A stretch of 64,000 nt of DNA from Escherichia coli. Lineage in GTDB: Bacteria; Pseudomonadota; Gammaproteobacteria; Enterobacterales; Enterobacteriaceae. Below the pieces are notes generated by a model. That model worked only from the letters and a program-made list of their open reading frames with translations. It did not search any database and was not told the origin of the DNA. Positions 34,730 to 35,673 of this stretch are shown here, piece after piece. The stretch lies in NCBI RefSeq assembly GCF_003334405.1, contig NZ_QOWM01000009.1, one strand, 5' to 3'. The stretch's first letter is position 1. Each line of letters begins with the position of its first letter. Made by a program: the position numbers and the translations under genes.

Positions 34730-35178
34730 AATTATAATAAATATTATTGTTGAGTGTTATATTATTATTCCTGTGTGATACATTGAGCAAAGACGCGTTC
34801 ATCTTCGTCAAAGATATTATTAAATGCTGGTTTTGAAAAAAGTTCATCGGATAAGATATAGTCACGAAATAAGTATCTGCTAATATTTTATGATTTCTTT
34901 TTCAGAACGTCGAACGGGATTTTCTTATTTAAGATATCAGAATCTTATGATTCGGGTAAAATTCTAAATAAATCAACATGTCATTAAAATCATCATAGCC
35001 ATTAGCTATTTCGGCTAAAATAGAGACTACATGTCTTCGGTCCATCTCACTTAAGGAGTGTAGTTCCGTTGTAAGTTTTTCCATAGCTTGCACTGCTAAA
35101 TTTCGAACAAGGAATTTTCTGCTGGTAATCTCTAAAAAGATGGCATGGTTTACAATGATTTTTGTTTCCTTTTGATTA

Positions 35179-35673
35179 TTATGAACAACTGTCCATGATT
35201 TCGTTTAAGAATGAAGAGAAATCACTAAACGAACTGAATATATTTTCTGTGCCAATATTATCTCTAATTTCAAAAAAGTTACTTTTAATGTCATAAGTAA
35301 ATATTGAAATGCTATAATCCCCGATCACTAACCGTTCTTGTAGATCAGGGTTTATGAAATCATCATTATTTCTATAAAATTCATTTACGGCAAAAAGGTT
35401 TTTAACTGAAGGTTCTGGAATCGAGAGGCTAAATAATCGTAATCCATTAACTTCGAATCCATCCATTGCTCTTAAAAAAGTAAGATAATCAGGTTGATTC
35501 TTAAAAAGAATACTAACTTCATTACATAACTTCTCCAGGCAATTAGTTGAATTAGAATTAAATTCTATTTGGATTATACTTTCAATAAATGATTCCTTGA
35601 GCGGTGCTTCAAATGGATAGTCTAAATCATTCATCATTTTTATTAATTTATTTATTTGGGTTTTAGTCATCAT
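35179..35673 (-). CDS. yrhA: Putative immunity protein for YhhZ nuclease toxin
   Basis: 164 aa; start ATG overlaps yhhZ stop in ATGA (35670-35673); AT-rich; no transposase ORF or IS1 ends in this interval. Confidence 0.7.
   Translation of the reverse strand: MMTKTQINKLIKMMNDLDYPFEAPLKESFIESIIQIEFNSNSTNCLEKLCNEVSILFKNQPDYLTFLRAMDGFEVNGLRLFSLSIPEPSVKNLFAVNEFYRNNDDFINPDLQERLVIGDYSISIFTYDIKSNFFEIRDNIGTENIFSSFSDFSSFLNEIMDSCS

Follow-up and report, generated by a model that had tools for sequence, protein, structure and literature searches.

Proteins of the SUKH (SMI1/KNR4) group confer immunity in polymorphic toxin systems that deploy nucleases (Zhang, Iyer and Aravind, 2011; PMC3113570); this founding paper of the group mentions none of yrhA, yhhZ and Hcp. 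A close described counterpart of the locus analysed here is the effector–immunity pair Hcp-ET1/ETI1 of STEC O104:H4 C227-11 and STEC004 (Ma et al., Virulence 8:1189, 2017, via PMC6730261 and PMC6099711), in which Hcp-ET1 is reported to be a T6SS2-dependent antibacterial DNase that kills competitors and is neutralised by ETI1. In a preprint on STEC O22:H8 strain 154, an orphan Hcp-HNH gene and the gene downstream of it were identified as Hcp-ET1/ETI1 at 99% and 99.4% identity. YhhZ itself has been placed in group 32 of the His-Me finger nucleases (PMC5714182), while another study termed its HNH domain 'degenerate' and the protein an 'evolved Hcp not linked to T6SS function' (PMC2907695). The presence of IS1E within yrhA, with transcription in tandem with yrhA, was described in a 2025 paper (PMC12428005).

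The window, by which we mean the whole 64,000-nucleotide stretch of Escherichia coli DNA that was analysed, carries the uninterrupted form of this locus. We hold with high confidence that it is best explained, as a whole, as the ancestral unoccupied yhhZ-yrhA-yrhD-yrhB islet by ggt, with a full-length YrhA that would act as the cognate immunity protein to the Hcp-HNH protein YhhZ. The features concerned are collected in Table 1. The yrhD-yrhA-yhhZ segment is a small islet of variable presence which has been horizontally acquired.

Table 1. Coordinates of the yhhZ-yrhA locus and its surroundings in the window, with the interrupted MG1655 allele for comparison.
Feature	Coordinates	Strand	Description
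yrhB	34445..34729	minus	94 aa; Pfam Imm35 (Immunity protein 35), PF15567, E = 4.6e-23
AT-rich islet with yrhD, yrhA and yhhZ	34730..37084		~2.4 kb; 31.8% GC vs 52.7% for the whole window
yrhD	34929..35084	minus	51-codon ORF between yrhA and yrhB; annotated yrhD in MG1655 and other genomes
yrhA	35179..35673	minus	Intact 164-codon gene; predicted SUKH-fold immunity protein; ortholog of the gene adjoining Hcp-ET1 (ETI1)
Unoccupied IS1E target site	35284..35292		One copy, TTTAATGTC; GACATTAAA on the gene strand; codons 128-130, D-I-K
yhhZ (RefSeq: tssD)	35670..36848	minus	392 aa; Hcp fused to a C-terminal HNH (His-Me finger) nuclease domain; putative toxin
yrhA::IS1E of MG1655	NC_000913.3 3583038-3584309		b3443 pseudogene; insA6/insB6

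The small gene yrhD also lies inside the interval 34730-35673 and went unmentioned when that interval was first described; it matched no NCBIfam model. Its neighbour yrhB, annotated in MG1655 as 'putative heat shock chaperone', may represent an orphan immunity gene belonging to the islet, given its Imm35 match, since no cognate toxin gene adjoins it. Scanned for promoters and terminators, the islet gave counts that were not above those of shuffled sequence. The small RNA gene ryhB (37695-37789, plus strand) lies just past yhhY at some 850 bp from the islet and has no bearing on the yrhA finding; it was placed by coordinate transfer from MG1655, with which this stretch is 100% identical. The self and MG1655 comparisons also brought to light a ~117-bp intergenic repeat of ~84% identity, present in three copies in both orientations (20988-21104, 26813-26929 and 55024-55130), which is probably a known E. 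coli intergenic repeat family.

A first-pass annotation of this DNA had stated that MG1655 carries an IS1 copy (IS1E, insAB) at this position and that its yrhA is disrupted, and had noted in the window an intact yrhA of 164 codons. This statement agrees with the annotation of NC_000913.3 and with PMC12428005, and yrhA was indeed found as a single open reading frame in the window. In the reference genome IS1E (768 bp, insA6/insB6) is annotated at 3583428-3584195, at the position homologous to the window's site, and splits yrhA into pieces of 390 and 105 bp. Alignment of the window with MG1655 resolves into two blocks, one pairing window positions 1-35292 with 3619487-3584196 and the other pairing 35284-64000 with 3583427-3554712, and their overlap is exactly the 9-mer GACATTAAA. 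In MG1655 this 9-mer forms a direct repeat on both flanks of IS1E, the two copies being identical, so that the ~768-bp element and 9-bp target duplication for which the first annotation had suggested looking are both present in the reference; at the window site the 9-mer is single-copy. The two alleles share their locus and flanking genes, and once the element and one 9-bp copy are set aside the coding sequences are 100% identical, fragments 1 and 2 of the MG1655 gene when joined giving the window's yrhA at every base. They differ in that neither the 768-bp IS1E nor a second copy of GACATTAAA is present in the window, whose yrhA is one frame of 164 codons where the product of MG1655 is truncated. 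IS1E lies in the same orientation as yrhA and is inserted after codon 130, giving K-12 a product of 130 native residues followed by eight IS-encoded ones (GDAANLLI); this truncated product is what is annotated as a 138-residue 'YrhA family protein' in K-12 derivatives.

The claim that the interval between yrhB and yhhZ contains neither an IS1 inverted repeat nor an InsA/InsB-like reading frame was upheld by BLAST, by repeat search and by the list of open reading frames. An IS1 was taken to be an element of ~768 bp with terminal inverted repeats of ~23 bp (GGTGATGCTGCCAACTTACTGAT...) and insA and insB' reading frames. When the MG1655 IS1E was compared by BLAST with the entire 64-kb window, only chance matches were returned (no longer than 19 nt, E ≥ 0.49); the terminal inverted repeat was absent from both strands of the window with up to six substitutions allowed; and neither insA nor insB' was among the open reading frames listed for 32000-39000. 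Neither the BLAST nor the fuzzy repeat search gave any sign of a solo inverted repeat or of remnants of IS1 in the window.

The distribution of the two states was followed in 5,426 complete RefSeq E. coli genomes. The uninterrupted 121-bp stretch around the target site was present in 3,414 of them at 96-100% identity, while the MG1655 IS1E junctions were found in 357 genomes (left) and 374 genomes (right). Among the matches listed, all 60 right-junction records carried the names of laboratory or K-12-derivative strains, including MG1655, C600, DH5alpha, DH1, J53, NCM3722 and RR1. Because uninterrupted genomes are so numerous and the junctions are confined, in the records listed, to such names, the empty site is the ancestral state, shared by the majority, and the IS1E insertion is a marker of the K-12 lineage. 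The locus is not universal: O157:H7 genomes are without the islet, the match being limited to the last 44 bp at the ggt end, and other genomes retain yrhB and yrhD only. Most locus-bearing genomes keep a full-length yrhA. The difference between the intact and the IS1E-bearing allele is real yet already known: the annotation of the reference genome records both IS1E and the pseudogene, many RefSeq genomes have an intact 'protein YrhA' on record, and under the name Hcp-ET1/ETI1 the pair has been characterised.

An empty site could in principle also arise in a K-12 derivative that had lost IS1E by precise excision, restoring yrhA, in which case the window would represent a revertant and not the pre-insertion state. 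The exactly restored junction is what such an event would leave, and from the site towards yhhZ the window is 100% identical to MG1655 for 6.4 kb. Over the 64 kb as a whole, however, 17 substitutions and one inserted base separate the window from MG1655, a divergence that we judge to be far above that of K-12 derivatives. The 1-bp difference falls in glpR, which in MG1655 is a frameshifted pseudogene with one base missing; the extra base at window position 58256 (relative to MG1655 position 3560455) restores the frame, leaving an intact gene of 252 codons (58106-58864, plus strand), and the glpR frameshift is thus another K-12-specific lesion that the window does not have. At least eight natural isolates, moreover, match the central 24 kb of the window over its full length with the top score (100.0%), among them RM10410 (crow), A14 (opossum), ETEC4073 and SHP24 (pigs), NCTC9041 and NCTC9087, as well as human isolates, and the 3,414 genomes that share the uninterrupted site are of diverse haplotypes. 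Precise excision of IS1 is rare. The element moves mainly by the replicative route (PMC12428005), which also speaks against its clean loss. We therefore reject the precise-excision revertant, to which we give next to no probability, on the strength of the substitutions and indel and of the full-length top matches in wild isolates. The source is a natural, phylogroup-A-like E. coli that is very near K-12 but is not K-12, and the earlier reading of the window as the pre-insertion state is borne out by these differences, the wild-isolate matches and the genome counts, including the uninterrupted site in the other E. coli genomes with which comparison had been proposed.

The YrhA protein matches the NCBIfam family NF038335 (E = 1.7e-35), and no Pfam model was matched even at E ≤ 10, the SUKH models considered (PF09346, PF14567 and PF14568) included; because of this, its placement in the SUKH group rests on a structural model and on transitive homology. 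Relatives of YrhA are few, 61 having been found among 1.84 billion representative proteins. When 38 full-length members of the family were aligned, seven matched SMI1_KNR4, five SUKH_6 and three SUKH_5 (E ≤ 0.001), and the family profile matches Lin2918 (2icg) at E = 0.0015. AlphaFold models the protein with confidence (pLDDT 88.9, pTM 0.85), and the predicted fold is a complete domain with the alpha+beta arrangement of SUKH proteins. Sequence identity between YrhA and the SUKH proteins YobK of B. subtilis (2prv), Lin2918 (2icg) and RhsPI (8bd1) is just 12-15%. The gene context is that found for such proteins, yrhA directly adjoining the putative toxin gene yhhZ with its Hcp and HNH domains. 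On the predicted structure and these indirect matches, we assign YrhA to the SUKH (SMI1/KNR4) immunity fold. Residues 131-164, which are lost in K-12, are modelled with more confidence than the rest of the protein and make up a pair of beta-strands together with the C-terminal helix; the K-12 truncation probably breaks the modelled fold. Some database entries place the start of YrhA 12 codons further in, giving a protein of 152 aa.

In YhhZ the Hcp/TssD domain is N-terminal and matches TIGR03344 with E = 3.8e-34, above the curated cut-off, with further matches to Pfam T6SS_HCP (E = 2.5e-11) and to Hcp3 in the PDB (E = 2.3e-11). The match of residues 322-343 to Pfam HNH is weak (E = 0.013), and the HH...N...H residues are present in the C-terminal region (...NVHHKLSLDDGGTNDFENLVLIENEPYH...). 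The stop codon of yhhZ overlaps the start codon of yrhA in an ATGA at 35670-35673, an arrangement which suggests that the two genes are translationally coupled. In C227-11 the corresponding genes lie between ggt and yhhY, AAF13_RS24945 being yrhA and AAF13_RS24950 the Hcp-family gene. The window pair has the same ggt-yhhY position and the same order of an Hcp-HNH gene and, overlapping its end, a small immunity gene, and its products are 98.8% (YrhA) and 99.7% (YhhZ) identical to the C227-11 proteins, differing by A300T in the toxin and by D16N and Y120D in the immunity protein. The pair at the ggt locus of strain 154 differs from that of the window by three residues and one residue. Given this near-identity to both pairs, yhhZ-yrhA of the window is, as far as its sequence can tell, Hcp-ET1/ETI1 in all but name. 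No T6SS cluster was found within the 64-kb window. The tag given for Hcp-ET1 in the review literature, AAF13_24945, is numbered like yrhA (AAF13_RS24945) and not like the Hcp gene (AAF13_RS24950) in the C227-11 locus compared here (34887-36556); either the numbering shifted by one from one annotation version to another, or the citation is in error.

IS1 has entered the same operon elsewhere. Three natural isolates, PI24 (pig), 2018-11-3CC (human) and QEC11-421 (human), carry IS1 inside yhhZ, the insertions being independent and at different positions (35754-35766, 36204-36212 and 36698-36705), with yrhA intact. Counted together with the IS1E of K-12, the yhhZ-yrhA operon (1.7 kb, AT-rich) has taken up IS1 independently at least four times, and it may be an IS1 hot-spot or a module that is repeatedly disarmed.

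In the history that we propose, IS1E entered yrhA after codon 130 in the K-12 lineage, duplicating GACATTAAA and leaving a truncated product, an event that never occurred in the lineage of the window; it is for this reason that yrhA of the window encodes the full 164-residue protein of predicted SUKH fold. By analogy with the orthologous Hcp-ET1/ETI1 pair, we infer that YhhZ is a T6SS tube protein with a DNase warhead and YrhA its cognate cytoplasmic immunity protein. YhhZ would be built into the T6SS tube and delivered to neighbouring cells, where its HNH domain would degrade DNA, while YrhA, co-translated from the overlapping gene, would bind and block the nuclease domain in the cytoplasm of the producer and its kin. 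Since both genes are intact, the yhhZ-yrhA module of the window is predicted to be functional, with delivery requiring a T6SS. The suggestion in the first-pass annotation that the putative immunity gene may be functional fits well with the full-length frame, the 98.8% identity to the C227-11 ortholog and the complete fold predicted for the protein.

It might be argued instead that the yrhA frame, intact as it is, does not encode an immunity protein and that YhhZ is no active toxin, the islet being a decaying and silent remnant whose state is without phenotype. K-12 is viable although its yrhA is truncated and its yhhZ intact, the HNH match of YhhZ is weak, its HNH domain has been called degenerate and the protein unlinked to T6SS function (PMC2907695), and the independent IS1 insertions in yhhZ of three natural isolates would fit a dispensable module. 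Set against this are the near-identical pair of C227-11 and STEC004, which is reported to consist of a T6SS2-dependent antibacterial DNase and the immunity protein that neutralises it (PMC6730261, PMC6099711), the H-H...N...H residues of YhhZ, the retention of full-length yrhA in most genomes with the locus, and a structural model of YrhA that is both confident and complete. We consider a silent remnant very unlikely and retain YrhA as the probable cognate immunity protein of YhhZ.

K-12 is without T6SS genes (PMC6730261). A further proposal, which we put forward only tentatively and regard as doubtful in its entirety, is that K-12 lost ETI1/YrhA to IS1E while keeping the Hcp-ET1 gene, and that yhhZ-yrhA is a recurrent IS1 target that is gradually disarmed in lineages unable to fire it. 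If this were true, strains with the window-type allele would be immune, and K-12 sensitive, to Hcp-ET1 delivered by T6SS2-positive E. coli; K-12, which T6SS competition assays usually employ as 'prey', may be without a functional ETI1 that its wild relatives keep. At this locus the K-12 reference represents the derived state and most E. coli have a full-length yrhA, and the pseudogene annotations of K-12 should not be carried over to other strains.
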